The notes beneath the pieces are model-generated. The model searched no databases. It saw only the letters and a program-made list of their open reading frames with translations, and was not told where the DNA came from. The translations under genes and the position numbers were made by a program. This document shows positions 6,798 through 47,042 of a stretch of DNA of 64,000 nucleotides, piece after piece. The first letter of the stretch is position 1. Each line of letters opens with the position of its first letter. Source of the DNA: an uncultured bacterium (lineage in GTDB: Bacteria > Babelota > Babeliae > Babelales > Babelaceae); assembly GCA_963699275.1 (NCBI GenBank), contig OY969428.1, forward strand, positions 629,110 to 693,109. The letters are read 5' to 3'.

Positions 6798-6816
6798 GCG
6801 TCTATTTAATTGATAA

Positions 6817-11216: not shown

Positions 11217-11286
11217 CTCTTCTCTAGCAAACTCATTTCCTTCTATAGTAGTGTAATGGTGGAGATCATTTTTTATTAGGAGAGAG

Positions 11287-22765: not shown

Positions 22766-23767
22766 CTAAGAAGCTGTATTAAGAATATAGGCATCAAATG
22801 CAACAAGCCATTGAAGAATCTCGCTGTTCTCCGGCTTCTTGCAGGCAAGATCGAGAGCTCTTTCTCCGCGCATGTCTGTTATCATAACATTAATACCCTG
22901 TTTATTGAGAAGTAGTTTAACTATTTCAGTGTGACCGTAAGCAACCGCAAACATCAGAGCTGTTGTGCCAGAATGATCTTGGGAATTAACATCAACACCC
23001 TCTTTTTCAAGGAGCAACCTCACTGTTTCAGGGTGGTTTTCTATAACGGCAAGTGTGAGAGCGGTTGCGCCCGAAATTTCTTGCGCATTCAAACCTATAC
23101 GAGGGATATCAAGAAGTAACTTTGTAATTTTGGCATGACCATTGTAGGCAGCGAACATAAGAGCCGTCTCGCCACCGACATTTCCCGCATTGAAATCAAT
23201 TCCAGGTTGAGCGAGCAGTACTTCAACAACATCCGTATGTCCTTTTTCAGAGGCAATCATGAGAGGAGTGTCACCATCTAAATTTCGGGCGTTGATATCG
23301 GTAGCAGGTTGGGCGAGGAGAAATCGCACAAATTCCACCGGAGCGCCACGTGCTGCGAGCAAGAGAGGTGTTAATTTGTTTAGAATATTGCACTTGGATT
23401 GTAGTGCTTGGAGTATCGTTATATATTGCACTTCTATACTCTCAGGAGAGATAAATCCAGGAAGTGGCACAATGGGAGCTTGAGCATGTTCAGCGACTTG
23501 AGGTGAAAATTCTGAGGAGGCAACATGGACGCTTACCGTGCTTGACCCCGAGCTGCTTGCCTGTGCAGCAGGAATAAATTGTTGATTGTCTGTTGCCATG
23601 TTTTCAGGAATTAATTCTTGTTGATCAGTTTGGTAAAAGCGAGTTTTTTTAAACTCTTGTTCAGTCGGCTCATTGATGTCATCTATTAGATGTCTTTTTT
23701 TTTCCATGGTGAAGAGAGAATGAGTCGCGAGCAAACATGAGATAATGAGAAAAATGTTAAGTTTCAT
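22766..23767 (-). CDS. ankyrin-repeat protein with N-terminal secretion leader
   Basis: Leader MKLNIFLIISCLLATHSLFT then MEKK. There are at least 6 ANK units (G.TPLM.A...GH...V..LL..PGID.NA). Confidence 0.9.
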   Translation of the reverse strand: MKLNIFLIISCLLATHSLFTMEKKRHLIDDINEPTEQEFKKTRFYQTDQQELIPENMATDNQQFIPAAQASSSGSSTVSVHVASSEFSPQVAEHAQAPIVPLPGFISPESIEVQYITILQALQSKCNILNKLTPLLLAARGAPVEFVRFLLAQPATDINARNLDGDTPLMIASEKGHTDVVEVLLAQPGIDFNAGNVGGETALMFAAYNGHAKITKLLLDIPRIGLNAQEISGATALTLAVIENHPETVRLLLEKEGVDVNSQDHSGTTALMFAVAYGHTEIVKLLLNKQGINVMITDMRGERALDLACKKPENSEILQWLVAFDAYILNTAS

Positions 23768-33226: not shown

Positions 33227-33727
33227 ATGAAAAAAATTCTCATTCTCGGATTATTGGCTTTTTCTTGGGGCATATACGCTGAAAACAAAGAAGAGCTTTA
33301 TAAAGAAGAACTTATGGGAGCCATAAAAGAGGGTAATGTCGAAAGCGTTACGAGAATTTTAAAGGCAGGTGACGTGCAGAAAAATCATCTGATAGAAGCT
33401 GCTCTCTTTGCTTTGGATAAAACAAGAAACGAATGTTTAATAAAAGTTCAAAATGAAGCCCAGAAGAGTGGTACTGCCCTGATGGCAGCTATGCTAGGAA
33501 TTTCAGTATATATTTTTGGAATTTGCTATGCGAATAAGATTAATTTTTATGAAAGCTTAGCGTTAGCTTTGATGCCGTCTGTGGGAACTCTATTCGCAGC
33601 GGCAATGGTTAATATATTAGAGTTAAATAAGATAACTACTCCTGACCCACATATTAATGCACTCGAGATTGCTCGACTTGTGGCACATTCAGCTCACAAA
33701 CCTGAAGAACCGTCTGAAAATAAATAA
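33227..33727 (+). CDS. P-family member 1: leader + short helical motif + 2 TM + charged tail, unknown function
   Basis: MKKILILGLLAFSWGIYA-ENKEELYKEELMGAIKEGNVESVTRILKAG..., two hydrophobic helices, then ..LEIARLVAHSAHKPEEPSENK. Confidence 0.7.
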   Translation: MKKILILGLLAFSWGIYAENKEELYKEELMGAIKEGNVESVTRILKAGDVQKNHLIEAALFALDKTRNECLIKVQNEAQKSGTALMAAMLGISVYIFGICYANKINFYESLALALMPSVGTLFAAAMVNILELNKITTPDPHINALEIARLVAHSAHKPEEPSENK

Positions 33728-33844
33728 AACATGAGTTCGATATGAGCAGATTTATTAGGAAGATTTTTCAAGATTCTTTTTTGATGAAATAGGGATCAAA
33801 AAATATCTTAGATATAACGCTAACCATATCATACGAGGAACATC

Positions 33845-34351
33845 ATGAAGAAACTTCTCATTCTTGGATTATTGGCTTTTTCTTCCAGCTTATACGCTGA
33901 AAACAACGAAGAGCTTTCTAAAGAAGAACTTATGAGAGCCATAAAAGAGGGTAATGTCGAAAGCGTTACGAGAATTTTAAAGGCGGGGATACAGAAAAGT
34001 GATCTCACCGATGCCGCACATTTTGCTCTTGATAAAATAAAAAACGAAATTGCACTAAGGGCTGCTAACGAAGAGTATAGGCTCGGATCGACCATGTTGT
34101 CGCTCATCTACATATATGGTTCTTATATGTTTTTCATTTGCCGGGCCAATCACATGCAACTGCACGAGAGCTTAGTGATGTCATTTATTCCTGCCGTTGC
34201 TGTCCCATGTCTAGGCCTTTTAGTAAAATGGTTTGGTCTAGATCAACCTACAATAGCTGATCCTCAAGTTAATACGATAGAAATTGCTCGGCTTGTGGCC
34301 CTTTCAGCGTATTCTGCGAAATCATCTGAAAAGCAAGCAGAGCAAAAATAG
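33845..34351 (+). CDS. P-family member 2
   Basis: MKKLLILGLLAFSSSLYA-ENNEELSKEELMRAIKEGNVESVTRILKAG.... The upstream 110 bp or so also duplicates the region upstream of member 1. Confidence 0.7.
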   Translation: MKKLLILGLLAFSSSLYAENNEELSKEELMRAIKEGNVESVTRILKAGIQKSDLTDAAHFALDKIKNEIALRAANEEYRLGSTMLSLIYIYGSYMFFICRANHMQLHESLVMSFIPAVAVPCLGLLVKWFGLDQPTIADPQVNTIEIARLVALSAYSAKSSEKQAEQK

Positions 34352-34474
34352 ATTACATCAAACTCTTTTTTTACCTGGCATGAAATGTTATTATAACCCA
34401 CTAAAAGATGCCGTTTGACGGAAGAGGTCGCAAAAAGTATGATACCATTAGCACTGATCTGTAAGAGGAACAAC

Positions 34475-35002
34475 GTGAAGAACTATATTATCATCGCTTT
34501 TCTAGTCCCCATTTTCACGGGTATCCTGTTTGCTGATCAAAAGCAAGAGCTTATGGATGCAATAAAAAAACGCGACATTAATCAACTTGCAAGGATTTTA
34601 TTGAAAGCAGATCTCATGCAAAAAAGTGATCTAGAGGACGCGCAGCAGTATGCTTTTGATAGACTAAAACATCCGTCAGTAGAGAGAACTCCTTTTGAAT
34701 GGTGCCAAGTTATAGGAGGCCCTACCGTGGGTTTCTGGAGTCTCTATTGGATTTTGACGAAAATGGGACGTTCAAATGGCCCGCTTGTTTGGTTACACCT
34801 GGGTGCTTTGGTTGTATCACCCTTTGTTATGCTTAATGGTTTTTTGGCGCCAATTATACGCTCGACTGCGTCAGAAGTAATTGCTGAATATGTATCAAAA
34901 GCAGCTGATATTGTACGAGAACATCCTGAAAAAGGGAAACAAAGGCTTTTGCTTGAAAAGCTTATATTTGAAGGGACCACTTTTATTAGAGGAACACCAT
35001 GA
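34475..35002 (+). CDS. P-family member 3
   Basis: GTG 34475 is preceded by aagaggaacaac, the same RBS context as members 4 and 5. VKNYIIIAFLVPIFTGILFA-DQKQELMDAIKKRDINQLARILLKAD... Confidence 0.6.
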   Translation: MKNYIIIAFLVPIFTGILFADQKQELMDAIKKRDINQLARILLKADLMQKSDLEDAQQYAFDRLKHPSVERTPFEWCQVIGGPTVGFWSLYWILTKMGRSNGPLVWLHLGALVVSPFVMLNGFLAPIIRSTASEVIAEYVSKAADIVREHPEKGKQRLLLEKLIFEGTTFIRGTP

Positions 35003-35526
35003 ACAACTATCTTCTTATTGTGTCTTTTGCTTGTGTTTTTACAAGTGCTCTGTTTGCGGATAAGAGAGATGAACTTATCAGTTCAATAAAACGGGGCGAT
35101 GTAGAAAAAGTAACAAGAATTTTAAGAAAGGCTGATCAAATTCAGAAAAATGACCTCGAGGAAGCAGCTGAATATGCTCTCGACCGAACAAAATCGCCAT
35201 CCTTATCTCGGACTGGATGGGAATGGACGAAGGCTATTGCTGGTGGTTTGTTCTTACCAACCAGTCTGCTTAGTTGGCACTGGTTCACCGGGGGACCATT
35301 TAGAGATGATTCTCCTAATTGGTTTGATGTGGGACATGCTATGTTTGCGGCTTTATGTGCGTATCTGCTTTACTCCGGGATAAGCACACCAATCAAGCGC
35401 TATGCTGGTGCGAAAGAAATTGCTCACCTGGTAGGAAATGCAGCTGAAAAAACTGGAGAAAAATCTGAAAATGCAGGCGAGCAATCAGCTCCGCGAAAAA
35501 GATTAATAATCGATGACGAAGATTGA
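34999..35526 (+). CDS. P-family member 4
   Basis: MNNYLLIVSFACVFTSALFA-DKRDELISSIKRGDVEKVTRILRKAD.... ATGA overlap with member 3. Confidence 0.7.
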   Translation: MNNYLLIVSFACVFTSALFADKRDELISSIKRGDVEKVTRILRKADQIQKNDLEEAAEYALDRTKSPSLSRTGWEWTKAIAGGLFLPTSLLSWHWFTGGPFRDDSPNWFDVGHAMFAALCAYLLYSGISTPIKRYAGAKEIAHLVGNAAEKTGEKSENAGEQSAPRKRLIIDDED

Positions 35527-35549
35527 GTCTTTATTAAAGAGGAACAACC

Positions 35550-36077
35550 ATGAATAAATATTTTCTTATTGGGTCTTTTGCTTTCACAAGTATTTTGTTT
35601 GCGGATAAGCGAGATGAACTTATCAGTGGAATAAAAAAAGGTGACGTAGAAAAAGTCACAAGAATATTAAGAAAGGCCGATCAAATCCAGAAAAATGACC
35701 TCGAGGAAGCAGCTGAATATGCTCTCGATCGAACAAAATCGCCATCCTTATCTCGGACTGGATGGGAATGGACGAAGACTATTGCTGGTGGGTTGTTCTT
35801 ATCAACCAATTTGATTAGTTGGTACGTGAGGTTCACCCACGAAGAATTCAGAAATGTCCCTTTTCCTAATTTGCATGATGGGGTGCATATTGTCTGGACA
35901 TCTTTATGGGCGTATCTGCTTTACTCCGGGATAAGTGAACCATACAAGCGCTATGCTGGTGCGAAAGAAATTGCACGCCTGGTAGGAAATGTAGCTAAAA
36001 AAACTGATCAAAAATCCCAAAATGCAGGTGAGCAACCAGCTCCACGAAAAAGATTAATAATCGATGACGAGGATTGA
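35550..36077 (+). CDS. P-family member 5 (recent duplicate of member 4)
   Basis: The first 80 aa or so and the last 45 aa or so are nearly identical to member 4 (...KNDLEEAAEYALDRTKSPSLSRTGWEWTK...; ...RKRLIIDDED). Confidence 0.7.
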   Translation: MNKYFLIGSFAFTSILFADKRDELISGIKKGDVEKVTRILRKADQIQKNDLEEAAEYALDRTKSPSLSRTGWEWTKTIAGGLFLSTNLISWYVRFTHEEFRNVPFPNLHDGVHIVWTSLWAYLLYSGISEPYKRYAGAKEIARLVGNVAKKTDQKSQNAGEQPAPRKRLIIDDED

Positions 36078-36229
36078 TTTTCATTTTATTTAAAAGAATG
36101 AAAAGCATAGCGAATACGCTTTTCAGCCCTTTTTTTATTTTAAATTTCGAAAAGATTAGTTGTATGATTTGATGAGAGAAATAACAAAAATAGTATAACG
36201 ATATATTTCTTCAAGGCATTTAAAGGAGC

Positions 36230-36682
36230 ATGATGATTAATCGTTTATTTATTGGTTTACTAGTTTTCATCTCTACAGGCTGCATTTTTGCTGATCAAGA
36301 GGATCGGCATGTGGGAGGTATAGACAAAAATGAAGACCTAATGACTGCCATAAAAAAAAGGGATGTTCGAGAAGTTAAAAGAATTTTGGCGGATGTCGAT
36401 GCTATGCAGACAAAGGATTTAGAAACTGCTTTTGAGTATGCTTCTTCCCGCATGAAACAAAGTTCACAACGTAAGTGGTGGGAATGGTTTTTGATTATAT
36501 ATTGTGGTGTACACTTATTTAAAAGAGATGGTGCTAACTACTGGCATATTTTGAATACTATTTTTGCGACGCTAGGAATGTGTTACGGGATAATCGGTCC
36601 TTTTAATCGGCAGGCAGCAGCAGAAAAAATTACTCGGCTTTTGCTGACAAAGTGCCGCGAGAAAAATGTGGAAATCCAGTAA
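36230..36682 (+). CDS. P-family member 6 (divergent)
   Basis: Leader ...FISTGCIFA-DQEDR.., DLMTAIKKRDVREVKRILADVDAMQTKDLETAFEYA, one or two TM segments, AEKITRLLL tail. Confidence 0.6.
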   Translation: MMINRLFIGLLVFISTGCIFADQEDRHVGGIDKNEDLMTAIKKRDVREVKRILADVDAMQTKDLETAFEYASSRMKQSSQRKWWEWFLIIYCGVHLFKRDGANYWHILNTIFATLGMCYGIIGPFNRQAAAEKITRLLLTKCREKNVEIQ

Positions 36683-36716
36683 AATAGTACTTCCCATAAA
36701 GAAAAATAATTCATCG

Positions 36717-37307
36717 ATGAGGAAAGATTTGAAAACCCTAACGATAATACCTATGTACTTGGTTATTTTTGGAAGTGTTAGTTTGCATGCTGACAAAGCA
36801 CAGAATGCACTCATGCGAGATGCTATTGAGACGTCTGATGTGTTAGCAGTCAGGGGACTTCTGAAAAAAGTAGAGCCTCTTAAAACCGCAGATAAGACTT
36901 CCTGGATCAAATTTGCAGATGATGTCATTGGGGAAAAAAGAGAGTTAACATCTCTTCTTAAGAGCCCACGTGATCTTATACGGTTTCTGTTTGGAGCAAC
37001 CGTTACCGTAAGCTGCACAGGACTTGCCGGCTTTTTTTTCAGACGCTACCTTAGGTGCCCGCTAAACTCGGGGGTGGACCCTGAAGAAAGAAGAACAAAT
37101 TTAGTCTATAGTGGTCTTTCTGCAGGTGTAGTAATACTGGGTGTTATCGCAATGGTCAAGGGTTGGTATTGTGATACTGCATATGCCAATGTAAAACTTG
37201 CTCGCCTAGCGAAAGAAGCTATCGAAAAAGCTCTTGTGGAAGGAGCTACTGGTACTCCTCAGTTAGCACAAAAAGATATTCGATCTTCAGACAAAAAAGA
37301 TCAGTGA
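36717..37307 (+). CDS. P-family member 7 (most divergent)
   Basis: MRKDLKTLTIIPMYLVIFGSVSLHA-DKAQNALMRDAIETSDVLAVRGLLKK.., two TM segments, VKLARLAKEAIEKAL tail. Confidence 0.55.
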   Translation: MRKDLKTLTIIPMYLVIFGSVSLHADKAQNALMRDAIETSDVLAVRGLLKKVEPLKTADKTSWIKFADDVIGEKRELTSLLKSPRDLIRFLFGATVTVSCTGLAGFFFRRYLRCPLNSGVDPEERRTNLVYSGLSAGVVILGVIAMVKGWYCDTAYANVKLARLAKEAIEKALVEGATGTPQLAQKDIRSSDKKDQ

Positions 37308-37412
37308 TTTTTTTTCTTATTGACAAATTGCTCAATTAGAATATGCTAGGAGCCTAGGTACCTATGTGGTCCTGTTTTGTTATATATCAGTAGTTATACA
37401 TTCGAGGTTTTC

Positions 37413-38302
37413 ATGAAAAACATTATAGTAAAGATTTTGTTTTCTGCTCTCGTGTTACTTCCCTCAGTGAAGGCGATGCAGCAGTCACAAACTTCAGCAA
37501 ATAGTCGCAGACAACGGCGCAATCGTCTGATCAGCAAAACAATGCAGTATTGCAGCAAATGCTTGTTGCTTCTATGGATCAGTCCCACATGCAAGCTATT
37601 TTAACGAGTATGGCTGAGATATCGAAGGCGATTCTTGCTCGTATTGAGAAAGAAAAACAGGAAGAATTGGCAAAGGCCAATGAAAAATATCAAGCGGCAT
37701 TTGTGTGCGCGTTTCAGAACAGTGAGTCGACGCAAGAGGAAAAAGAGATTGCCTTGGAATATATAGCATTTTCCGCTCGCTTAATACCGGCAATAGCTGA
37801 TTATTATGCGAAGAAAGCTACTTTAGAGAAAGTGGCTGAAGAAGTACAATGGCGTGCTATTTCTGCCTTACAATGGCAGATTTCAAAAGTTGATCTGCCT
37901 GGGGAATGTTGTGTAGCTCCGTATCGTGAAATGACCCATGAAGACTATCTCAAAGAGCGTATAAGATGTGAGAAAATTTTGGCTTCTCGACCGACTGCTG
38001 ATGACGTTGGAATAGCGGCACTGTGTTGGATTGCGAATGAAGGAAATTGGGCAACTCAGCAAAAAAAGGATGCCGCTACAAACCTGCAGGCCGCAAATGC
38101 GACGATCGAAGCGACAGTTCTCTCGCCTCAAATGGCAGCTCTGAAAGCACAATATACAAAAAGAAAGCGCATGTTAACTTCCTATTTAGGCAGTTATTTC
38201 TTTTCTCAAGAAACGCGTTCGCAAGCAGCTTTAGAGTTTTACGAAATAAGTAAGGCAGAAAAAAAGCTCGCCCAATCACAGAGTCAGCCGGCTGCTCAAT
38301 AA
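37413..38302 (+). pseudogene. Q-family member 1 (exported coiled-coil protein) with a frame break after the leader
   Basis: The leader MKNIIVKILFSALVLLPSVKA-MQQSQTSAN.. (frame of ORF 37377..37604) runs into a stop. The homologous body (..NNAVLQQMLVASMDQSHMQAILTSMAEISKAILARIEKEK..) is in the -1 frame (ORF 37550..38302), which is closed by TAG just upstream of about 37505. Confidence 0.65.
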
Positions 38303-38367
38303 CTAATTTGTATTTACAAAGAATTCTTAATCAAATGACAAAAATACTCAGATACTATGAGGTTCTT

Positions 38368-39498
38368 ATGAAAAACATTTCAATCAAGATCATCTTGCTT
38401 GGTCTTGCATTCAGTACTTCAACAAAAGCAATGCAATCATCATCACAAGCTTCAGCTGACTCCATGACTGCGGAGCATACGACAACTACTGAAAACTTAG
38501 TTGGAGCATTTAATGCTCAAATAAACGCACTAACAGAACGATTTCATTCGGAAAAAAGATTCTTGGAAGCTGCGCAAGGGGACGAACGTGTGGCACGATT
38601 GGCCTTTATTCAAACTTTACAAACGGAGCTTAGTGATCTTGTCGATAGACGTGATGCACAACGAGCGGCTGGCGCAGGTCTGCGGCCTTCAAATGGACAG
38701 GCAGCGCAATCTTCTACCCAGCCTCAAGAAACGGTACAAAACGCTCTCTTAGCTTCTATGCAAAAATCACAGGTGCATGGAAGAATTTTAGAATGTATGG
38801 CTGAGTTAGCTAAGAAAATTGTTGCTCGCTTTTCGAAAGAAAGGGATGCAGAAATGGAAAAGGCTAGAATGCAAAATGAACAAGCTCTGCAAGTTCTTAA
38901 AAACAGTGAGTCGACGCCAGAGCAAAAAGAACTTGCTATTGAGCAGATAGAGTTTTTAGGGCGTTTGATGCCTGCGATAGCTGATTACTATGCAAAAGCT
39001 GCAGCCTTAGATAATATATTTACTGAAGTTCGCTGGCGAACGATTTCAGGTCTCCAGCGCGCAGCAGCTGAGGCTGGTCAGCCACCGAAACAATGTGTGG
39101 GTGGTTCTGAAACAGTTATGACCCATGAGGATTATTTAAGTTCACGTGCTAGATATGAAAAAATTCTTGATGATCTTCAGGCATCTGATCTACTTAAACA
39201 GGACACCATTTTATCCTGGTATTGGACTGAAAAGAGATGGGAAGGGCAGCAAAGAAAAAATGCTGCTAACGAAGTGAAAGCCAATAATGCTGCAACCGAG
39301 AAAACAGAAACACCGGTTCTTACTCAAGTAGCAAGCCAAAAAGCTGAATATATGAAGAAGCAGCATACTCTAGCTCTTTATATAGGCTGTTATTTCTTTA
39401 CTGAGGAAGTACGTGTGAAAGCGGCTTTGGATTTCTATCAGATTGAAAAAGAAATAAGACGACTTGTGCATCCAAGTACTCAGTCAGCTTCGCATTAA
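38368..39498 (+). CDS. Q-family member 2
   Basis: MKNISIKIILLGLAFSTSTKA-MQSSS... Shared blocks ILECMAELAKKIVARFSKERDAEMEKA, NSESTPEQKELAIEQIEFLGRLMPAIADYYAK and AALDFYQIEKE. Confidence 0.7.
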   Translation: MKNISIKIILLGLAFSTSTKAMQSSSQASADSMTAEHTTTTENLVGAFNAQINALTERFHSEKRFLEAAQGDERVARLAFIQTLQTELSDLVDRRDAQRAAGAGLRPSNGQAAQSSTQPQETVQNALLASMQKSQVHGRILECMAELAKKIVARFSKERDAEMEKARMQNEQALQVLKNSESTPEQKELAIEQIEFLGRLMPAIADYYAKAAALDNIFTEVRWRTISGLQRAAAEAGQPPKQCVGGSETVMTHEDYLSSRARYEKILDDLQASDLLKQDTILSWYWTEKRWEGQQRKNAANEVKANNAATEKTETPVLTQVASQKAEYMKKQHTLALYIGCYFFTEEVRVKAALDFYQIEKEIRRLVHPSTQSASH

Positions 39499-39513
39499 TT
39501 AATTTTTTAGAGG

Positions 39514-39558
39514 GCTCTCTTGGATATTATCAAGATATTTCCAAGAGAGCTCTTTTTT
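39514..39558 (+). terminator. rho-independent terminator
   Basis: An 11-bp perfect stem gctctcttgga / tccaagagagc (39514-39524 / 39540-39550), then tctttttt. Confidence 0.7.
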
Positions 39559-39624
39559 GTTTAAATTAGTTTTGAATCTTAGAGGATTCCATCTTTAGAA
39601 GGCTTTTATAAAACGGAGGTTTTT

Positions 39625-40473
39625 ATGAATATTTCGCAGAGAGCAGTAGTTATGTGCTTGCTTGTTACTTTATTTTCTTCGGTAATGGCGATGCAGCAAG
39701 AGGAACGTAATATTCAGTGCTATGAACAAATTCTAACCAGACTGCCTCCTTCTCAAAAAATGTTACACATTATGGCGCGTATAGCCGAAGCGATTTTTGC
39801 TCGCGCTGAGAAAGAAAGGCGAGCAGAGATGCTTAAAGTGCGAACAGAGTTGGACAGTGCTTTGAAGGTTCTTCGAAGCAGCCTATCATCACAACAGGAA
39901 AAAGAACAGGCAAGCGAGACGGTTGAATTTTTAAATAGACTTTCAGGTGAGATCTCGGTCCATTTTGCAAAAAAGACCGCAACTCAGGCTGTGCTTGAAG
40001 AGGCTTCGGGCAGGGCTCTTTTTGCCCTAAATGATGCCGTTGAAAGAGTAAGTGCTGATGAGCCTCATGACGACACCCCGCGGGAAGAATTTAAATTAGG
40101 ACATTATCAAGATGATCTGAATCGAGCGCTTAGTATTCTTAATGATGCAGAGAGTCCTCTTAAAGAAAAACGGAATGTTGCGAGGGTATGGTATTTCAAT
40201 GAGCTTCGTTGGGCAGAGCAACAAAGCAAGAAGAACACAGAAAAAGCACAGCAAGATGCGCCAGTAGCTCAGATAGACAATAAAAAAGTTCCGATCCTCT
40301 CGCCAGAACAAGCAGCGCAGAAAGCCGAATATGAAAAAACAAAGCGTATCGCAGTGAAGTATATACACTGTAATTATTTTAGTGAAGACGTGCGCTATCA
40401 AGCAGCGCTTGATTTCTATCTTGCAGACAAAGCCGAAAAAGATCTTACAGCTTTTCAGTCCACCACATCCTAA
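39625..40473 (+). CDS. Q-family member 3
   Basis: MNISQRAVVMCLLVTLFSSVMA-MQQEE... Shared blocks MARIAEAIFARAEKERRAEMLK, SSQQEKEQASETVEFLNRL and AALDFYLADKAEKDL. Confidence 0.7.
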   Translation: MNISQRAVVMCLLVTLFSSVMAMQQEERNIQCYEQILTRLPPSQKMLHIMARIAEAIFARAEKERRAEMLKVRTELDSALKVLRSSLSSQQEKEQASETVEFLNRLSGEISVHFAKKTATQAVLEEASGRALFALNDAVERVSADEPHDDTPREEFKLGHYQDDLNRALSILNDAESPLKEKRNVARVWYFNELRWAEQQSKKNTEKAQQDAPVAQIDNKKVPILSPEQAAQKAEYEKTKRIAVKYIHCNYFSEDVRYQAALDFYLADKAEKDLTAFQSTTS

Positions 40474-40625: not shown

Positions 40626-42137
40626 ATGAATATAAGTCAGAAATCAGTTCTGGCTTTCGTAACGTTTATGCCACTTCTGCTCAATGCAGCAGGAGAGGCA
40701 TTCTTGGAAGGCCGCATTCGTACGGCAATTGCGGAACGTCAATCGAGAATTAATAGTCCAATTTCAGGCGAGCGGGTTGCGCAAAGAGCCATTGAACAGC
40801 GACTGAGATCTCCAGAAGAGTGCATACGTGAAGCTGTCGAATTGCGCGAGACAATCAGGTTTGCCCATGAAATTGCTCATGATCCTGCAAACAATCCACA
40901 AGCTCTTATCGCCTCAGTGAATGCTGAGCAGGCAGAATATGAGCGCAGAGAGCGTGAGGAACTTGAAGCATCAATTAAATGGAGAAATACCCTTCTTACC
41001 CCATTCGAAATTAATGGCTATACGGTGCCTGTTGGATTTTATAAGAGAGATCTTATAGAATTACCCATTTATGGGGTCCAATTGTATGCACGTAAGCTTC
41101 TTAGAACATCGCTTAAACAACGCCGTGAAGAAACTATCATTAAGCATATTACTGAAGGCGCATATAATTCGCTCATCGAAATTCTCGAATCGGTAAAGAA
41201 AGCCGAAGAAAAATATGAGCTTGAGTATGAAGAAAAAAGTGCGCTTGGAAAGTTATTTACTGTTGATTCACGCGCACGAGATGTTCTTTTGAATCCTATA
41301 CGTGAGTACCTTTACGAGAACCACTATCTTATCGGTTATCTGCCCATTAATACCATGGTTTTATTTCCGTTACTCTCATGCTGGCTTTTTGATAAGACGA
41401 GCTCCTGGCTTGAATCGACGCTCTTAGAGAAGGATTATGATGAGATTTTTCGCAGGGGTGGGGTTCAAGCTTTGAACATGGAATATCTTGAAGCCTTTCA
41501 ACCAAATGCTGAAGGGCAACTAATAAAGGCTGAAAAGACGCCATTTACACTAACAACGAGCTTGCGATTTTGCGAATGGCTGTTATCTTTTTCGTATTTT
41601 CATAAGCTGCCAAGCACCATGAATTTACGAGTATTTTTATTATGGCTTTGGGGTATTCCAGCGCCTCTTTTTAATGACGCAAAAATTTTCAAGACTATGA
41701 GTCAGCTCGCAGGAGTAAAGTTACCTGATGCATTCTACTCGAAGCCGGTTGAGTTGGCTATCGAATATTTAGGTTATGGATTTTCCGCGAAACTTTTTGA
41801 TAGACAATGCGGTGAAACGTGGACGAAATACGTTTTGGAGAACCGTGAAAAATTTCTCACACGCTTAAAAAATTATAAACGTGCAGTAGAGCAACTTGAT
41901 AATGCTGAGGTCGCTGTTAAAGAAGCTGAGCGAAAATTGAGAAAATTTGTGGAAAATGGCCACCGCATGAATTCATGGTTGCCGGGTGCTGAGGCAAGGC
42001 AGTGGTGGAAGTCGGAATCTCGTGGATCCACTACAATAACGAATGCGGTCAGCCTTGGCTTGACGGGTATAATGGCATATAAGTTGGCCCGATGGTATTG
42101 GAATATAACGCATCCGCGAGCTGAGCATCCAGCTTAA
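40626..42137 (+). CDS. large exported/membrane protein, unknown function
   Basis: Start is taken at MNISQKSVLAFVTFMPLLLNA (same MNISQ leader type as Q3). A charged helical region is followed by several hydrophobic segments and a C-terminal TM segment (AVSLGLTGIMAYKLARWYW). Confidence 0.6.
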   Translation: MNISQKSVLAFVTFMPLLLNAAGEAFLEGRIRTAIAERQSRINSPISGERVAQRAIEQRLRSPEECIREAVELRETIRFAHEIAHDPANNPQALIASVNAEQAEYERREREELEASIKWRNTLLTPFEINGYTVPVGFYKRDLIELPIYGVQLYARKLLRTSLKQRREETIIKHITEGAYNSLIEILESVKKAEEKYELEYEEKSALGKLFTVDSRARDVLLNPIREYLYENHYLIGYLPINTMVLFPLLSCWLFDKTSSWLESTLLEKDYDEIFRRGGVQALNMEYLEAFQPNAEGQLIKAEKTPFTLTTSLRFCEWLLSFSYFHKLPSTMNLRVFLLWLWGIPAPLFNDAKIFKTMSQLAGVKLPDAFYSKPVELAIEYLGYGFSAKLFDRQCGETWTKYVLENREKFLTRLKNYKRAVEQLDNAEVAVKEAERKLRKFVENGHRMNSWLPGAEARQWWKSESRGSTTITNAVSLGLTGIMAYKLARWYWNITHPRAEHPA

Positions 42138-42169
42138 TGTCAAGACAAAAACCTTAGAGGAGAACCTAT

Positions 42170-43840
42170 ATGATGGATAAAATAGTTACAAGAGGTCTAA
42201 AGGCGGTATTCTATCTATCCTTTTTACAGGGGGCTGTGCAGCTTTACTCTATGGAGGCGGCTCGAGGAGCACTTCCAGGAGCAGCTAACCCGAATGATCC
42301 TAATCGACCGCAGGTTGGGGAACACATTGCACAAGTTTATAACGTAGTCGAGCCAGCCATTCGGAACAACATAAATGCGATGGTTCTTGGTGAGCGTGAA
42401 GCATTGCAAAATGCACTTGATGCTGTGAATATCTCCTTAGCTAATGCTCGTGGAGTGGAACGAGAGAGATTATTAGCACGACGTGCTCAATTGGAAGATC
42501 AGCTTTTTGCCGTTGCAAGGCGACACGGAGGTCTTTTGGAGAATGCCCATCAAGCTGCTGTAAATATCGGAGCAGAATATGCTAGGTTCATTTTGGATAG
42601 AGGGAGAGAAGAATTTTCACGGCAAACGCAGTTTGGTAATACAGCTATTAACGCTCGTGAAAATCGTGCTGGAATGGTGCAAGCAAGCAGAGATCGTTTT
42701 GCCGATATTACTAATTGGGTTCGAGGTAATCCGAAATATATTTTGGGCATGACTGCAGGACTGACCATAGCAAGCTATGGTACCTATAAAGGGCTGCAGA
42801 TTGCGGCACATCGTTTTGAAAAGGAAACCCCACGTCTTGCGCAAGAAACATCGCTCCTTTCTACTAAAGAACAGATGCTTAATTGGTTAACGGGTAAACC
42901 ACAAAAAGAAGCAAATATAAAAGATGTGATTTTGCCTGAGGAAGATGAAAGGCGCGTGGAGGAGATCGTTGCAGCAATGCAATACTCCGTTCAAAATGGT
43001 GCCTATCTTAAAAATGGACTTTTCTGGGGACCTCCAGGAACTGGTAAAACTTTCTTGCTTGAAAGAATTGCTCGTAGTAGTGGCATGGATTATCTCTTAG
43101 TTGCAGGTCCCGATGCATTTGCCTATAGTGTGGAAGAAGGAATTATAGAGTGGAATAAAGTATTTGATCGAGCTGAAAACCATCCTAGACCAGTTATGAT
43201 TGTTATCGACGAATGCGAAGTTATCTTAGGTGACAGAAAAGACCCTGCCAATCAATCTGATAAGAAGCAGGCTTACCTCAATTTAATTTTAACGCGTTTT
43301 GGAACAGAAAATCGTAAACGCTGCGTGTTTGCTATCTGTAACCTTCCTGAGCGCCTTGATGAAGCATTTTTAAGCCGGTGCGATATTCAGATGTATGTAG
43401 GAGTCCCAGCGGTTCCTCAGCGTAAGCAGTTAATTAAGAAATATTTCACGAAATATCTTATTAAAGCAGAACACTTGGTGCATGAGGTTGTGGCCACAGT
43501 TACTGGATTCTTTAACAATCTTTTCTCATCGCCACCACCGCCTCCTACGCCACTTAAGTTCGAACAAGGCTTACTCAAAGATAATGAGATGAGTCCTCAG
43601 TTGATTGATGAAATCAGCGACAAACTTGAAGGACATGACTTTGTGGGACGTGATATTTCAAAGATGATGTTAATGATAGAAAGTACCGCGCACTCAACGA
43701 AGGACTCGATGGTTACTCGAGCTATTATTGATCGCGTGATAAAGACCAAGATTCACGAGAAACGTGTTGCTCGAGAAGGCTTTAAACGGGCACCATCGCA
43801 GGCAGATAAGAAGCCAACGCAGACATCTGCCGCAGCATAA
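42170..43840 (+). CDS. membrane-anchored AAA+ ATPase with ATAD3-like architecture
   Basis: N-terminal leader ..AVQLYS-MEAARG, then a helical region and a TM segment (YILGMTAGLTIASYGTY). Next come ETPRLAQETS, Walker A GLFWGPPGTGKTF, SGMDYLLVAGPD, Walker B VMIVIDECE, and the ..ICNLPERLDEAFLSRCD.. block. Confidence 0.75.
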   Translation: MMDKIVTRGLKAVFYLSFLQGAVQLYSMEAARGALPGAANPNDPNRPQVGEHIAQVYNVVEPAIRNNINAMVLGEREALQNALDAVNISLANARGVERERLLARRAQLEDQLFAVARRHGGLLENAHQAAVNIGAEYARFILDRGREEFSRQTQFGNTAINARENRAGMVQASRDRFADITNWVRGNPKYILGMTAGLTIASYGTYKGLQIAAHRFEKETPRLAQETSLLSTKEQMLNWLTGKPQKEANIKDVILPEEDERRVEEIVAAMQYSVQNGAYLKNGLFWGPPGTGKTFLLERIARSSGMDYLLVAGPDAFAYSVEEGIIEWNKVFDRAENHPRPVMIVIDECEVILGDRKDPANQSDKKQAYLNLILTRFGTENRKRCVFAICNLPERLDEAFLSRCDIQMYVGVPAVPQRKQLIKKYFTKYLIKAEHLVHEVVATVTGFFNNLFSSPPPPPTPLKFEQGLLKDNEMSPQLIDEISDKLEGHDFVGRDISKMMLMIESTAHSTKDSMVTRAIIDRVIKTKIHEKRVAREGFKRAPSQADKKPTQTSAAA

Positions 43841-43870
43841 CAATGTTCTCTGTAGTAGAGTGAGCATCCA

Positions 43871-43910
43871 GAACATGCCGTTCCCAAGAAGGAGCGGCAT
43901 GTTCTTCTCT
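43871..43910 (+). terminator. rho-independent terminator closing the 33.2-43.8 kb cluster
   Basis: A 10-bp perfect stem gaacatgccg / cggcatgttc (43871-43880 / 43895-43904), followed by ttctctt. Confidence 0.6.
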
Positions 43911-44123: not shown

Positions 44124-44402
44124 ATGAATAAGTGTTTAAAAATTACGCTTACTATCGAGATTAAAGAGGGCTTTTTGCAGAATATTATTCAGCAACAAGC
44201 ACGCAAGAATAATCTTGAAGGTATAGTGCAGCCACTTGGTTCTGATAAAGTCAAAATTATTGTCTGTGGAGAAAAAGAGCAGGTCGATTCTTTTGTCGAC
44301 TCGATTCATCGCGAGGCAACAGGCTCTGCAATTAAAGAAATCGAAATTGAACCGCATGTCAGAGATAAGGACTATCGCGGTGTCTTCCGTGTCATTGAAT
44401 AA
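44124..44402 (+). CDS. acylphosphatase-fold protein with degenerate active-site motifs
   Basis: The 92 aa from ATG 44124 are collinear by eye with acylphosphatases (VKIIVCGEKEQVDSFVDSI; AIKEIEIEP; FRVIE). IKEGFLQNI replaces the GRVQGVGFR phosphate loop. Confidence 0.45.
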   Translation: MNKCLKITLTIEIKEGFLQNIIQQQARKNNLEGIVQPLGSDKVKIIVCGEKEQVDSFVDSIHREATGSAIKEIEIEPHVRDKDYRGVFRVIE

Positions 44403-44477: not shown

Positions 44478-47042
44478 ATGCATATTCTTAGTAAATTAAC
44501 TCTTATTTTAACGCTTTTTTCGTGCGGACTTTATGCGGATGTCCCGTGGACCTTTACTAAAATACGGGGCAAGGGATCATTTTTTTCTAAAGAACGCTAT
44601 CTCCAGCACTATCTTATTGAGCCTGGGGATCGTTTTGATCTTTCTAAGCATAAGCTTTCTTTAACCAAAATGGTGGATGTGATGAAAGCAGAAGGGTACC
44701 TCAAAGCACGCATTACCGATGAAATAAATTATGATAAGGCGAGCAAAACTGTTTCTGTCGCGGTTAGATTTGAGCCTGGGTCACGTTATATTATTGATTC
44801 AGTTCAAGTTAAACTAGATCAGTATCCTGAACTACGTAATGAGCTGCAGAAAAAAGCAGAGAAGACGCTCGCGCATGCCATTGCAGAAAAGGATCGCATT
44901 GCTGCTGCAACAGATGAGATGACAAAGTATCTTGCTAAAAAGGGATATGCTGGTGCAACGATACAGTCGCATCTGGCGATTATAGAAGATAAGAAAAATC
45001 GAGCAACTCTTTCTTTTGTAGTGACACTAGTCGAGAAAAAGGAATATCTCTTTACCGGAAATTCTTTTTTTACGAGTGATCAACTGCTTGATGAAATTCT
45101 TTTAGTGCAAGAACAGGGACTTTCTTTGCCGGACTCATTGATTGCAGAAGATATTGAAGCTCTGTATAGGGCAAAAGGATTTTTAGCTGCTCATGTGGAT
45201 GTGAATGAAAAACCGGGTATAGTTACCTTTCTCATTCATGAGGGTGAGCGATATAAAGTCGGAACCGTAAGCAAAGCACTAACGGGAGATCACCCTGCAG
45301 ATCTATCGGTAAAAGAGATTGTAAAAAAATTGAAGCATGATCTTGAAAGCCTTCCGGTTTTTGATCAGGAGCAGATCGATGAGCGGCGTTTTCAAGCAGC
45401 CCAGGAGCTTACTCGCCTGGGGTACTGGGATGCTCATATTGAGGTGCAGATGAAGCCGATTAGAGCTAAAAAACAAGATATCGTGCTTGATATTCATCTG
45501 GGTAATAAACGAATGATACAAAATATCATCATTGTGGATCATCCAGAATTTCTCAAAGAAGGGCTCTTTAAGCGATGGGTCTGTTTAAAAGTTCCCCAAT
45601 CTATCAGTCCTCAAGAGATTGACGAGCAGAGGCGATGGCTTCAAAAAACATTTGCTAAGCGTGGATACCTCAATGCGAAAATTGCCTACGACATTCAGAT
45701 ACTCCCCTCAGGCTCGACTTTAGAATGGAAGATCGATATATCACAAGGGCCAGTTCGATTTGGCCGAACGGTTATTGCTGGCCTTAAAAAAATGAAACCC
45801 TATATTGTTGAACGAGAGCTTCGGTACCACGAAGGCGAAGTCTGGAGTAGGGAGAAAATAGACGAAAGCATAAAGCGGTTGCGCGATTTATGCATGTTTG
45901 AAACGATTTCCATTACACCGCTGTCTGAAGAGCCGGCAAATAGTCAGTTTCAGCCCGTGCTTATTAAATGCATAGAGGATGATCCGTTTGAAATAAGAAC
46001 ACGACTTGGATTTCAGTTTGTGAGCAAGAGTTTTACGCATGTATCGTGGTCAACCTTTCGACTTGGTGGATCTTTTCTTTGGAAGAATCCGGCCGGTATT
46101 GCCGATCGTCTGACCCTTGATGCAGATTTAAGCTGGTATACCCGTAATCTTGCCATCGGTTATGAAGTACCGTGGATTGGATCGTTACCGGTGAGGACAC
46201 TGTTCAGAGTGTATAGTGATCAGTATGATCAGCCGCTTATTTCGAGTAAGCAGCGGCTTTATAAAGAATCGCATGATGGTGTTAGTGTCTCTTTCAAACA
46301 CAGTCATCCCTGGTGGCATGGCTGCTTTAAATTTGGTATAGAGCTTGATAAGCTCTCATGTATTGCTCCCGAGCTTGCTCATGTGATCGATTTTGAGCCG
46401 ACATTGGTAAATCATCGGACTCCCTATCTCTATTTTGAGCCGATCGTCACGTTTGAACATTTTGATAATAAGGTTGATCCGTGCAAAGGATTTTCAACGA
46501 TTATTGCATTGAAAGCGATGGTCCCACCTGGGGTCAGAGATGGGTGGTTTATTAAAGCAGTTTTTGAACAGTCTTTTTATTATCCTCTCTATCGCTCATT
46601 GATTGGTGCGGTGCGCTGGAGAGTGGGACATATATTCAATCCGCAGTTTAATACCATCTTGCCAACTGAGCGGTTTTATTTGGGTGGCTGTTCTACCTTG
46701 CGTGGTTATGAGCCAAATATGGTTCCACCGCTTAATGATCTTGTCTGTGATAACTGCCGCATTTTCGTGCCTGTTGGTGGTAAATCGATGGCTAATATTA
46801 ATACTGAGTTACGGTTCCCTTTGTATCAACGACTGAGCGGGGTAGTATTTACTGATATGGGCGCACTTGCCCAAGATAAATTTGCAGATATTAAAGCACG
46901 GTGGGTGGGCGCAACTGGATTTGGGGTACGCTTTGCTACGCCGGTCGGACCTGTCCGTTTTGATATTGGGTGGAAATGGAAAAAGCGTAATCCTGAAGAT
47001 AAGAGATATGCATGGTTCCTTACGCTCGGTCATGCCTTTTAA
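44478..47042 (+). CDS. bamA: Omp85-family outer-membrane protein assembly factor
   Basis: Signal peptide and repeated POTRA-like modules. The C-terminal barrel has GGCSTLRGYE, NTELRFPL and GATGFGVRFATPVGPVRFDIGWKW, and ends ..LTLGHAF. Confidence 0.88.
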   Translation: MHILSKLTLILTLFSCGLYADVPWTFTKIRGKGSFFSKERYLQHYLIEPGDRFDLSKHKLSLTKMVDVMKAEGYLKARITDEINYDKASKTVSVAVRFEPGSRYIIDSVQVKLDQYPELRNELQKKAEKTLAHAIAEKDRIAAATDEMTKYLAKKGYAGATIQSHLAIIEDKKNRATLSFVVTLVEKKEYLFTGNSFFTSDQLLDEILLVQEQGLSLPDSLIAEDIEALYRAKGFLAAHVDVNEKPGIVTFLIHEGERYKVGTVSKALTGDHPADLSVKEIVKKLKHDLESLPVFDQEQIDERRFQAAQELTRLGYWDAHIEVQMKPIRAKKQDIVLDIHLGNKRMIQNIIIVDHPEFLKEGLFKRWVCLKVPQSISPQEIDEQRRWLQKTFAKRGYLNAKIAYDIQILPSGSTLEWKIDISQGPVRFGRTVIAGLKKMKPYIVERELRYHEGEVWSREKIDESIKRLRDLCMFETISITPLSEEPANSQFQPVLIKCIEDDPFEIRTRLGFQFVSKSFTHVSWSTFRLGGSFLWKNPAGIADRLTLDADLSWYTRNLAIGYEVPWIGSLPVRTLFRVYSDQYDQPLISSKQRLYKESHDGVSVSFKHSHPWWHGCFKFGIELDKLSCIAPELAHVIDFEPTLVNHRTPYLYFEPIVTFEHFDNKVDPCKGFSTIIALKAMVPPGVRDGWFIKAVFEQSFYYPLYRSLIGAVRWRVGHIFNPQFNTILPTERFYLGGCSTLRGYEPNMVPPLNDLVCDNCRIFVPVGGKSMANINTELRFPLYQRLSGVVFTDMGALAQDKFADIKARWVGATGFGVRFATPVGPVRFDIGWKWKKRNPEDKRYAWFLTLGHAF

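Follow-up and report, generated by a model that had tools for sequence, protein, structure and literature searches.

A 64,000-nucleotide stretch of DNA (hereafter, the window) from a member of the Dependentiae (TM6) encodes an AAA+ ATPase of 556 aa with a single predicted transmembrane (TM) helix, whose nearest named relative, judged by sequence comparison, is ATAD3, a protein that, to our knowledge, has not been known outside eukaryotic mitochondria. This ATPase probably represents a Dependentiae branch of the ATAD3 family that is encoded in an operon with a fast-evolving exported partner of ~500 aa and functions as an endogenous machine of the inner membrane. The bacterial branch has been seen so far solely in Dependentiae; a literature search turned up no account of an ATAD3 from bacteria, and two bacterial members are already called "ATAD3A/B" in the JGI pipeline annotation. 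A preliminary description of this DNA had assigned an ATAD3-type membrane ATPase and a preceding large membrane protein to two co-oriented plus-strand open reading frames (ORFs), of 556 and 503 aa, respectively. Both ORFs were found at the positions claimed beforehand, the 503-aa one coming first, and independent gene calling on a public contig yielded identical genes. All the strings quoted in that description, ETPRLAQETS (residues 218 to 227), GPPGTGKTF, SGMDYLLVAGPD, IVIDECE, ICNLPERLDEAFLSRCD, and VPAVPQRKQLIKKYF, are present in the 556-aa product.

Domain architecture of the ATPase

The ATPase gene (positions 42170..43840, plus strand; identified by PF00004, phmmer, hhalign, and BLASTP) encodes, in this order, an N-terminal leader, ~160 helical residues, and one TM helix, which a PRLAQETS linker joins to an intact classical AAA module. 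The leader (42170..42253, plus strand; residues 1 to 28, ...AVFYLSFLQGAVQLYSM|EAA), recognized by hydropathy and peaking at residues 13 to 31 in the family-averaged profile, belongs to an x-[STA]-M type found repeatedly in this genome and in many other ORFs of the window, and a comparable leader is present in most homologs of the ATPase. It is atypical in that Met occupies the presumed −1 site of a cleavage that is only predicted. The long helical region that follows (42254..42733, plus strand; residues ~29 to 188) is presumed to form a coiled coil, and its predicted location after export is the periplasm; the AF2 model places helices at residues 49 to 92, 96 to 158, and 163 to 186, with low confidence. 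The TM helix (42734..42808, plus strand; residues ~189 to 213, YILGMTAGLTIASYGTYKGLQIAA) is supported by hydropathy and by an AF2 helix at residues 195 to 216. Leader, helical region, and TM helix had all been proposed previously and are all present, although the TM helix proved only weakly hydrophobic (family-averaged Kyte-Doolittle peak of 1.27 at residues 188 to 206). Lys and Arg residues around it number 4 on each side, a count on which the positive-inside rule is uninformative.

The PRLAQETS linker motif (42827..42850, plus strand; residues 220 to 227) corresponds to PSLVRETS in ATAD3. The bacterial alignment shows no variation at its P, L, E, T, and S, and P221, A224, T227, and S228 are invariant in the family; in the ATAD3 alignment, P, L, V, and T are invariant and E and S are nearly so. 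The nucleotide-binding domain (43019..43402, plus strand; residues 284 to 411) matches PF00004 with an E value of 1.3e-20 and carries a Walker A motif (GPPGTGKT, 287 to 294), Walker B (D347-E348), sensor-1 (N391), and an arginine-finger region (LSRCD, R403). The catalytic motifs are intact: G287, K293, T294, D347, E348, N391, and R403 do not vary across the aligned family. The preliminary description had called for a structure prediction, and the AF2 model of the AAA core (pLDDT > 90) has a classical AAA fold. The lid domain with the C-terminal helix (43412..43774, plus strand; residues ~415 to 535) includes the FVGRDISK motif, with an invariant R494 and the counterpart FSGREI[AS]K in ATAD3, and carries a variable proline-rich insert at residues 445 to 470.

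Relationship to ATAD3 and to other AAA+ families

In an exhaustive phmmer search of 1.84 billion proteins, the top ranks were taken by ~100 similar leader-bearing bacterial proteins, followed by ATAD3 proteins with the PF12037+PF00004 domain combination, one of them from a fish, which scored well above all other AAA families. Best-domain scores against the window region were at least 83 bits for the family and ATAD3, whereas no other AAA protein exceeded 68 bits. The hhalign comparison with ATAD3 (probability of 100%, E = 1.2e-77) covers 351 columns from just before the TM helix to the C terminus, spanning the TM helix, linker motif, AAA domain, and lid. The core blocks and the position of PSLVRETS had earlier been aligned by eye, and this alignment was borne out by BLASTP against the fish ATAD3 (P0173, NCBI KAL3063778.1), in which the two proteins are 28% identical along a colinear stretch of 351 residues (E = 3e-33), in the order TM helix, P-x-L-x-x-ETS (PSLVRETS in the fish protein), GPPGTGKT, SGMDY, and C-terminal lid. 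Both hhalign and BLASTP align the TM helix with that of ATAD3 (VTATVAGLTLLAAGVYSARNATAVAG). The ATAD3 references were database proteins verified by Pfam and the named fish protein; a human ATAD3A sequence served only as a lead for choosing candidates.

The window protein shares with ATAD3A/B (PF12037+PF00004) an N-terminal helical or coiled-coil region, a single weakly hydrophobic TM helix rich in Gly, Ser, and Tyr, the P-x-L-x-x-ETS motif, a pre-AAA helix, the AAA domain, and a lid with the G-R-[DE]-I-[AS]-K motif. The GR[DE]I string is also found in outgroup AAA proteins and was dropped as an ATAD3-specific feature. The core motifs differ in detail: MDYLLVAGPD, VIDECE, and LSRCD in the window protein versus MDYAIMTGGD, VDEADA, and NDRID, respectively, in ATAD3. 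Further, the window protein is bacterial and starts with a Sec-type leader, whereas the N terminus of ATAD3 is proline-rich or faces the cytosol.

The ATAD3_N coiled coil mediates the interactions of ATAD3 itself, and it is in this part that the likeness ends. Of the two profiles suggested at the outset, PF00004 was readily detected, whereas PF12037 (ATAD3_N) gave no match to the window protein at E ≤ 1; nor is it among the 25 families most frequently matched by the 21 closest homologs. In hhalign, only the last ~75 positions of PF12037 (the juxtamembrane helix and TM helix) align to the window protein, and the coiled-coil part shows no similarity to ATAD3_N (probability of 1.8%), so that any functional equivalence of the N-terminal halves is a matter of analogy. 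More distant bacterial members do pass the ATAD3_N cutoff of 25 bits, namely P0102, a sister bacterial protein on a 1.32-Mb contig (28.7 bits), and P0141 (46 bits).

The clade II proteins (for example, P0132 on L089/L090 and the Babeliales protein at L002:7440-8981) and P0102 (on L091) resemble the window protein and its clade I in being bacterial, in having a leader and a matching architecture, in following immediately upon an uncharacterized ORF, and in residing on Dependentiae-type contigs. They differ in having another neighborhood, not beside BamA, and an upstream ORF that is weakly or not at all partner-like, and they are closer to the eukaryotic ATAD3, with MDYAI, FDWA, and DEADAF motifs and, in P0102, P0141, and P0155, a detectable ATAD3_N domain, unlike in the window protein. 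With the fish ATAD3 as the query, eukaryotic proteins scored 277 bits, clade II 182, clade I 107, and the outgroup 56 (the last three being medians). In a neighbor-joining (NJ) tree of 263 columns with 12 eukaryote-type sequences and 200 bootstraps, the ingroup including ATAD3 was recovered in 74% and the eukaryotic ATAD3 clade in 91% of replicates, and the backbone among the bacterial lineages and eukaryotes was supported at only 14 to 45%. Transfer of an ATAD3-type gene between bacteria and eukaryotes, one of the two consequences drawn in the preliminary description, is likely.

Should the protein be an ordinary bacterial AAA+ ATPase (FtsH-like, CbbX/SpoVK-like, or of the anti-phage IetA/IteA type), its likeness to ATAD3 would be generic. 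That reading could draw on weak partial NCBIfam and PADLOC matches to CDC48, FtsH, CdvC, and IteA/IetA (38 to 53 bits, far under the cutoffs) and on the best PDB sequence and fold matches, which are to p97/Cdc48, with no ATAD3 among the matches listed. We consider it highly improbable: the weak matches span only the AAA core of ~160 to 200 residues, whereas the matches to ATAD3 reach across the TM helix, linker, pre-AAA helix, lid, and C-terminal helix at about twice the score, and the ingroup is monophyletic with ATAD3 in 74% of the NJ bootstraps. The named relatives nearest to the window ATPase are those with PF12037 and PF00004, rather than FtsH- or CbbX-like ones, an outcome that supports the preliminary description, which had named a best placement among ordinary bacterial AAA+ proteins as part of what would refute it. 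FtsH is likewise a bacterial classical AAA hexamer with an inner-membrane anchor, a region in the periplasm, and its ATPase in the cytoplasm, but two TM helices enclose its small periplasmic domain and it ends in an M41 protease. The window ATPase has a leader, a long helical region, and one internal TM helix; it has no match to Peptidase_M41 (PF01434) and scores 52.6 bits against the FtsH model TIGR01241 (NCBIfam cutoff, 600). An anti-phage defense system of the IetA/IteA type was rejected: the PADLOC match to IetA (50.9 bits) covers the AAA core only, the IteA score in NCBIfam is 38.5 bits (cutoff, 510), and the neighbors are the partner, an acylphosphatase, and BamA, with no IetS-like protease among them.

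The solved structures that best match the fold are those of generic AAA proteins (p97 D1, FtsHi, NVL, and Rix7), and no ATAD3 entry appears among the fold-search matches listed. The D1 domain of p97/Cdc48 and other classical AAA proteins share the nucleotide-binding and lid fold (Foldseek E of ~1e-12, root mean square deviation of ~3.3 Å over ~300 columns), but p97/Cdc48 is a soluble tandem-AAA protein with N domains, 17 to 21% identical to the window protein, and has no leader, TM helix, or linker motif. Since the closest structures are protein translocases and unfoldases, the classical-clade fold and the membrane anchor would suit an unfoldase or extractase that serves membrane-protein quality control at the cytoplasmic face of the inner membrane, with the partner as a substrate adaptor and a periplasmic region that only oligomerizes, functions that a reduced genome may need. 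This role appears rather doubtful. Pore-loop-1 is FAYS in the window protein, the position is poorly conserved across the family, and the aromatic-hydrophobic-Gly consensus is absent from clade I, clade II, and eukaryotic ATAD3; moreover, an exported helical region of ~160 residues and an exported partner exceed what oligomerization requires.

The partner protein and the gene neighborhood

The partner gene (40626..42137, plus strand; 503 aa, found in the ORF list and by the independent gene call) encodes a protein with an N-terminal leader (residues ~7 to 27) and a largely helical body that is followed near the C terminus by a conserved hydrophobic helix (~471 to 489). The leader agrees with the preliminary description; the multiple TM helices proposed there are not convincing, as the hydrophobic features conserved across homologs are limited to the leader, a weak peak at residues 370 to 388, and the C-terminal helix. 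The partner has no match to known domains in Pfam, NCBIfam, PADLOC, or PDB, including a PDB profile search; its AF2 model, built from 3 sequences, is unusable (pLDDT of 47), and a word-index search with the partner alignment retrieved three proteins only. We know of no eukaryotic counterpart, and in being encoded together with a dedicated exported partner the window ATPase differs from ATAD3.

The partner and ATPase genes are separated by a 32-nt gap (42138-42169), not the 33 nt reported initially, which contains a GAGGAG ribosome-binding site (42157..42162, plus strand) 7 nt upstream of the ATPase start codon and in which a consensus scan reported no terminator-like site. We infer from this arrangement that the two genes are co-transcribed as a two-gene operon. 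Its possible end is an inverted repeat followed by TCTCTT (AGAACATGCCG / CGGCATGTTCT; 43870..43905, plus strand) with an 11-bp stem and a 14-nt loop, which begins 30 nt past the ATPase stop codon and was read directly from the sequence, its loop being above the limit of the consensus scan.

Farther downstream on the plus strand are genes for an acylphosphatase (44124..44402; 92 aa, PF00708) and for the outer-membrane assembly protein BamA/Omp85 (44478..47042; 854 aa, PF01103 with POTRA domains), both of them conserved neighbors. The adjacency of BamA is no evidence for a common function. The conserved upstream boundary of the locus is the glutamyl/glutaminyl-tRNA synthetase gene gltX (31656..33086, minus strand; PF00749). 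Between gltX and the partner gene lie arrays of leader-bearing paralogs (33227..40473, plus strand), recognized by paralogy and cross-locus homology, that comprise seven small proteins (150 to 213 aa) and three mid-size ones (250 to 396 aa), with zero Pfam matches among them; the window ORF at 36666-37307 is homologous to small ORFs of L084, L085, and L088.

Host and distribution

The host is a Dependentiae bacterium: the named relatives of TopA at 65 to 69% identity come from Dependentiae/Babeliaceae, and TopA homologs share contigs with the homologs of the ATPase. Of the loci with such ATPase homologs, L002 belongs to Babeliales and L003 to Dependentiae. The ATPase gene lies on a 1.73-Mb bacterial contig and is not a nuclear-encoded eukaryotic gene; eukaryotic contamination is ruled out by the contig size, the ribosome-binding site, the conserved bacterial synteny, and the presence of the gene on over 10 contigs of bacteria.

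Co-occurrence of the two genes in related genomes, proposed earlier as a check, was confirmed by finding the pair again on at least 10 related contigs. Partner homologs are directly 5′ of the ATPase gene in 8 loci (mutual phmmer E values of 1e-9 to 1e-91), and a metagenome scan added three short loci, two of which (L093 and L094) independently show the same pairing. The partner thus immediately precedes the ATPase gene in the window and in L082-L088, L093, and L094, with a weak resemblance in clade II, whereas the ORF upstream of the ATPase gene in L002, L003, and L091 shows no detectable identity with this partner. The usual order, gltX...partner-ATPase-acylphosphatase-bamA, is stable in the 6 clade I loci with enough flank, the acylphosphatase gene being syntenic in L083-L086 and L088, and the ATPase gene is single-copy in each locus examined. 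A scan of a genome collection with the whole-family alignment retrieved only two true relatives (one from Babeliales and one from Dependentiae), but was swamped by the generic PGTGKTM pattern and is therefore uninformative on the breadth of the family. Viral contigs scanned with the linker motif contained no relatives.

The partner-ATPase module evolves faster than the neighboring genes. Identity to the syntenic orthologs is 32 to 41% for the C-terminal half of the ATPase and 22 to 39% for the partner, compared with 59 to 75% for GltX and 39 to 51% for BamA, and similarity of the N-terminal half of the ATPase is undetectable even among syntenic orthologs. Such rapid divergence would also fit a host-facing protein, which counts against an endogenous role.

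Proposed mechanism and evolutionary implications

In the endogenous machine that we favor, the leader would route the first ~190 residues, with the helical coiled-coil region, via Sec to the periplasm, and the weakly hydrophobic helix would halt transfer and anchor the ATPase in the inner membrane of the bacterium itself. The ATPase module, presumably a hexamer, would remain in the cytoplasm, where ATP is available. With its leader and C-terminal anchor helix, most of the partner is proposed to lie in the periplasm beside the coiled coils, with which it may interact. Hydrolysis of ATP in the cytoplasm could then power conformational changes in an assembly that spans the periplasm in the direction of the outer membrane, with envelope organization, inner-outer membrane contacts, and lipid or protein traffic as candidate jobs. 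By analogy, the proposed topology, in which the ATPase faces the matrix or cytoplasm and the coiled coil occupies the intermembrane space or periplasm, would equal that reported for mitochondrial ATAD3, in which a matrix ATPase and an inner-membrane TM helix are joined to an intermembrane-space coiled coil that extends to the outer membrane (PMC10419812).

Organelle mimicry, the other consequence suggested at the outset, is the weaker reading. Dependentiae are obligate intracellular parasites that live within protists, and a secreted mimic of host ATAD3 could exit the bacterium, enter host mitochondrial membranes, and remodel or tether mitochondria for the benefit of the parasite. Leader-bearing proteins of eukaryotic type (ankyrin, WD40, UCH, and Mito_carr) abound in this genome and in related ones, and the fast evolution of the exported half of the ATPase and of the partner would fit such a role. 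The same is true of the biology of Chromulinavorax destructans, which replicates enveloped by an expanded host mitochondrion and in which 44% of the proteins have signal peptides (PMC6561590). Nevertheless, we find a secreted mimic less likely than an endogenous machine, and unlikely in its own right. A TM helix after a Sec leader should retain the protein in the bacterial inner membrane, and such a stop-transfer segment between the leader and an ATP-requiring domain argues for the endogenous role; there is no evident export route for a folded AAA hexamer. In addition, the gene occurs once per locus in synteny with housekeeping genes, the partner is leader-bearing too and co-conserved, and identity to eukaryotic ATAD3 is ~28%, with the ATAD3_N coiled coil missing.

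A bolder extension of the endogenous machine, which we regard as improbable, would make it an ancient trans-envelope device with which mitochondrial ATAD3 shares its origin through transfer, in either direction, around the time of early eukaryotes. Eukaryotes could have obtained the gene from a Dependentiae-like parasite, or an ancestor of the phylum could have acquired it from an early host and added the Sec leader and partner. The lineage is reported to lack lipid synthesis, and if the shared-origin reading is true, the machine might, among other tasks, carry lipids taken from the host through the envelope, and the bacterial system would offer a tractable prokaryotic model for the coupling of inner and outer membranes by ATAD3.

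In mitochondria, ATAD3 is essential and linked to disease, and how it works at the molecular level is debated. It was initially thought to be limited to multicellular eukaryotes, and its characterization in a unicellular eukaryote is only recent (PMC13249166). A diversified bacterial branch with an equivalent predicted topology and a dedicated partner provides an evolutionary handle on the origin of ATAD3 and adds a clear case of gene traffic between protists and intracellular parasites. Through it, two conserved genes that are annotated as "hypothetical" in a little-known phylum gain a likely role, and it may give a simpler system for studying how ATAD3-type ATPases function at a double membrane.

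The ATPase and Its Relationship to ATAD3

The 556-aa protein encoded at positions 42170 to 43840 (+ strand) combines a leader, a long helical region, a TM helix, and an AAA module, in this order. The preliminary description had likened this architecture, by eye, to that of eukaryotic ATAD3, and all the peptide blocks that it quoted are present in the product. The Pfam scan bore out the AAA part of the comparison, with a single AAA domain (PF00004, residues 284 to 411, E = 1.3e-20) and everything else at the noise level, but not the N-terminal part, as ATAD3_N (PF12037) was not detected even at E ≤ 1. Hydropathy averaged over the family has only two peaks, both modest, which correspond to the leader (residues 13 to 31) and the TM helix (188 to 206). 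In the AlphaFold2 model, built with 21 homologs, the AAA core and lid are confident (pLDDT above 90 at about 250 to 430 and 460 to 535); the N-terminal half is modeled at low confidence as long helices (49 to 92, 96 to 158, and 163 to 186) followed by a helix at 195 to 216. Walker A (GPPGTGKT), Walker B (D347-E348), sensor-1 N391, and R403 in LSRCD are invariant across the ATPase family, as are P221, A224, T227, and S228 of the PRLAQETS linker; judged at the motif level, the protein is catalytically competent.

Searched exhaustively with phmmer, 1.84 billion representatives yielded 106 matches at E ≤ 1e-30, and nine of the 10 Pfam-scanned proteins drawn from the top 150 matches carried both ATAD3_N and AAA (E values of 1e-6 to 1e-99), including ATAD3 from the fish Pagothenia borchgrevinki (KAL3063778.1). 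BLASTP aligned the window ATPase with this fish protein over 351 residues (28% identity, E = 3e-33). Profile-profile comparison of the bacterial family with the ATAD3_N-positive proteins gave a probability of 100% (E = 1.2e-77) over 351 columns, extending from ∼30 residues before the TM helix to the C-terminal helix, whereas the N-terminal coiled-coil region alone showed no similarity to ATAD3_N (probability 1.8%). Sequence comparison thus makes the 556-aa protein very probably a homolog of ATAD3; because the profile and BLASTP alignments cover that part, homology is well founded starting at the juxtamembrane helix and is not demonstrable for the exported half.

Per-domain scores against residues 215 to 545 of the window protein separated the bacterial family and the ATAD3 proteins (at least 83 bits) from every other AAA protein (at most 68 bits). 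With fish ATAD3 as the query, median best-domain scores were 277 bits for the eukaryote-type proteins, 182 for clade II (a second leader-bearing bacterial set), 107 for clade I (the leader-bearing bacterial set to which the window ATPase belongs), and 56 for the outgroup of other AAA proteins. The likeness to ATAD3 that had been proposed is upheld by this separation, the profile alignment, and the identity to the fish protein. NCBIfam models of CDC48, FtsH, CdvC, PAN, and IteA scored 38 to 53 bits against cut-offs of 500 to 1000, the PADLOC match to IetA reached 51 bits, and the PDB sequence and fold searches returned p97/Cdc48, Afg2, Rix7, NVL, and FtsHi, with matches confined to the AAA core. 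Pfam detected no protease domain in the protein.

Distribution and Phylogeny

The 20 homologs found by word-index search (497 to 572 aa, 31 to 38% identity) all have AAA as their sole domain. The two true relatives of the ATPase in the species-genome collection come from one Babeliales MAG and one Dependentiae MAG. TopA (topoisomerase I) of the window genome has many relatives at 65 to 83% identity, all the named ones being “Candidatus Dependentiae” or “Babeliaceae,” and several TopA relatives and AAA homologs sit on shared contigs. These relationships place the host in the phylum Dependentiae (TM6), whose members live as obligate intracellular parasites in protists. The window contig itself (1.73 Mb, GC content of about 41%) carries PBP1A, several leader-bearing ankyrin proteins, and RNase P RNA.

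In the neighbor-joining tree (142 sequences, 263 columns, 200 bootstraps), the whole ATAD3-like ingroup stands apart from other AAA domains with 74% bootstrap and the eukaryote-type ATAD3 clade has 91%; how the bacterial lineages branch with respect to eukaryotes carries only 14 to 45%, too little to fix the order. The window ATPase is placed at the base of the large clade I. Clade II takes in the Babeliales protein and P0132, whose gene adjoins Rho and TsaD on a 195-kb bacterial contig, and has more motifs in common with eukaryotic ATAD3 (MDYAI, FDWA, and DEADAF). In a third bacterial set (P0102, P0141, and P0155), the leader and a Pfam-detectable ATAD3_N occur together; the P0102 gene is surrounded by ankyrin genes on a 1.32-Mb bacterial contig. 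By these comparisons, divergence within the bacterial members is as deep as that between bacteria and eukaryotes, which argues for a long history in Dependentiae rather than recent capture.

Two bacterial members, one of them among the 20 word-index homologs, are already labeled “ATAD3A/B” in the JGI automated KO-based annotation, so the resemblance was already visible to pipelines. Full-text searches retrieved no paper linking ATAD3 with Dependentiae, Chlamydiae, Legionella, or bacteria in general, and the family, its partner, leader, and distribution appear to be undescribed in the literature searched.

Partner Protein and Conserved Locus

The gene for the 503-aa partner (40626 to 42137, + strand) ends 32 nt before the AAA gene; both ORFs lie where the preliminary description had put them, and identical calls were obtained on an independent public contig. 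Within the gap, a ribosome-binding site (GAGGAG) precedes the AAA-gene ATG by 7 nt, a scan revealed no terminator-like site between the two genes, and an 11-bp inverted repeat lies 3′ of the AAA-gene stop codon. To call the partner a multi-TM protein was an overstatement: hydrophobicity is conserved in the leader, in a weak peak at residues 370 to 388, and in a C-terminal helix. No relatives of it were found in Pfam, NCBIfam, PADLOC, or the PDB.

The two genes form a conserved module, as their pairing, noted at first in the window only, recurs across clade I and in L093 and L094, two metagenome loci found independently, whose upstream ORFs match the partner profile. In the clade I loci examined, an uncharacterized leader-bearing ORF of 420 to 621 aa ends 18 to 52 nt before the AAA gene, and these ORFs are mutually homologous (phmmer E values of 1e-9 to 1e-91). 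The sole exception is L084, with a gap of about 760 nt and an intervening 201-aa ORF (7277 to 7882, + strand), the first ∼40 residues of which nearly duplicate the N terminus of P0003, the AAA protein encoded downstream; the exported region seems to have been partly duplicated in tandem here. The partner profile gave a weak, colinear match to the upstream ORF of clade II (L089/L090, E of about 1e-8) and none to the upstream ORFs of L002 (Babeliales), L003 (Dependentiae MAG), and L091 (the P0102 locus). In L003, an 1829-aa ORF (1907 to 7396, + strand) directly upstream of the ATAD3-like gene has marginal C-terminal similarity to the window partner (BLASTP E = 0.04, 71 residues) and may be a much-expanded partner or an unrelated protein.

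The order GltX (− strand), small leader-protein arrays, partner, AAA, acylphosphatase, BamA is found in the window and in L083, L084, L085, L086, and L088. Identity to the syntenic orthologs is 59 to 75% for GltX, 52 to 66% for acylphosphatase, 39 to 51% for BamA, 32 to 41% for the C-terminal half of the AAA protein, and 22 to 39% for the partner, with similarity undetectable in the AAA N-terminal half; by this measure, the exported parts are the fastest evolving at the locus.

Two tandem paralog arrays (33227 to 37307 and 37550 to 40473, both + strand) have no Pfam matches. Seven small leader-bearing proteins (150 to 213 aa) make up one of them, and three mid-size proteins (250 to 396 aa) make up the other; the small family has syntenic counterparts in L084, L085, and L088, where similar ORFs precede the partner gene. 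Another eukaryote-type gene, encoding a mitochondrial carrier (PF00153, Mito_carr), is located between acylphosphatase and BamA in L083, a contig from a related member of Dependentiae (10541 to 11602, − strand), with WD40 genes nearby.

Leaders and Other Genes in the Window

A recurrent leader ending, x-[TSA]-M followed by E, Q, or S, was observed in the ORFs at 22766–23767(−), 24005–25477(−), 27643–28995(−), 38308–39498(+), 39625–40473(+), 42170–43840(+), 53628–55859(+), and 60681–62507(−), for example (slash after the Met) HSLFTM/EKK, QSVFTM/EKR, TSLLTM/EQT, PLCAM/SSK, SAIAM/QPN, and QLYSM/EAA, and in most homologs of the AAA protein. This ending may serve Dependentiae as a lineage-specific motif for signal-peptide cleavage or for sorting. 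Of the 47 ORFs in the window that are 150 aa or longer, 28 showed a hydrophobic stretch at the N terminus in a crude hydropathy test.

Two of these leader-bearing ORFs, 24005–25477(−) and 53628–55859(+), encode large ankyrin-repeat proteins with partial, below-cut-off NCBIfam matches to Legionella Dot/Icm Ank effectors and are typical candidates for host interaction in Dependentiae. The ORF at 20811–21269(+) starts with MHNNCGFTLIELMIIVAIIAFL, which resembles the N-terminal methylation motif of a type IV pilin or pseudopilin. A bacterial class A RNase P RNA (5252–5586, + strand, 236 bits) overlaps the mechanical ORFs 4799–5284 and 5484–6308, which are probably not genes.

Predicted Topology and Possible Function

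Because the AAA module requires ATP and comes after a stop-transfer helix that itself follows a Sec-type leader, the simplest arrangement would have the N-terminal helical region in the periplasm, the TM helix anchored in the bacterial inner membrane, and the ATPase module on the cytoplasmic side. The partner, via its leader and C-terminal anchor, would share a compartment with the coiled coils. Such an arrangement would be the topological equivalent of mitochondrial ATAD3, whose ATPase lies in the matrix, whose TM crosses the inner membrane, and whose coiled coils extend through the intermembrane space as far as the outer membrane (PMC10419812). The main rival explanation, a secreted ATAD3 mimic working on host mitochondria, would suit the lifestyle of Chromulinavorax destructans, a cultured member of Dependentiae that is enclosed by the host mitochondrion while it replicates (PMC6561590), but fits poorly with the internal TM helix, the co-conservation of an exported partner, and the stable synteny with housekeeping genes. 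The predicted topology and the likely placement of the partner alongside the coiled coils favor, with a fair degree of probability, an endogenous ATP-driven envelope machine that would span the periplasm of these bacteria.
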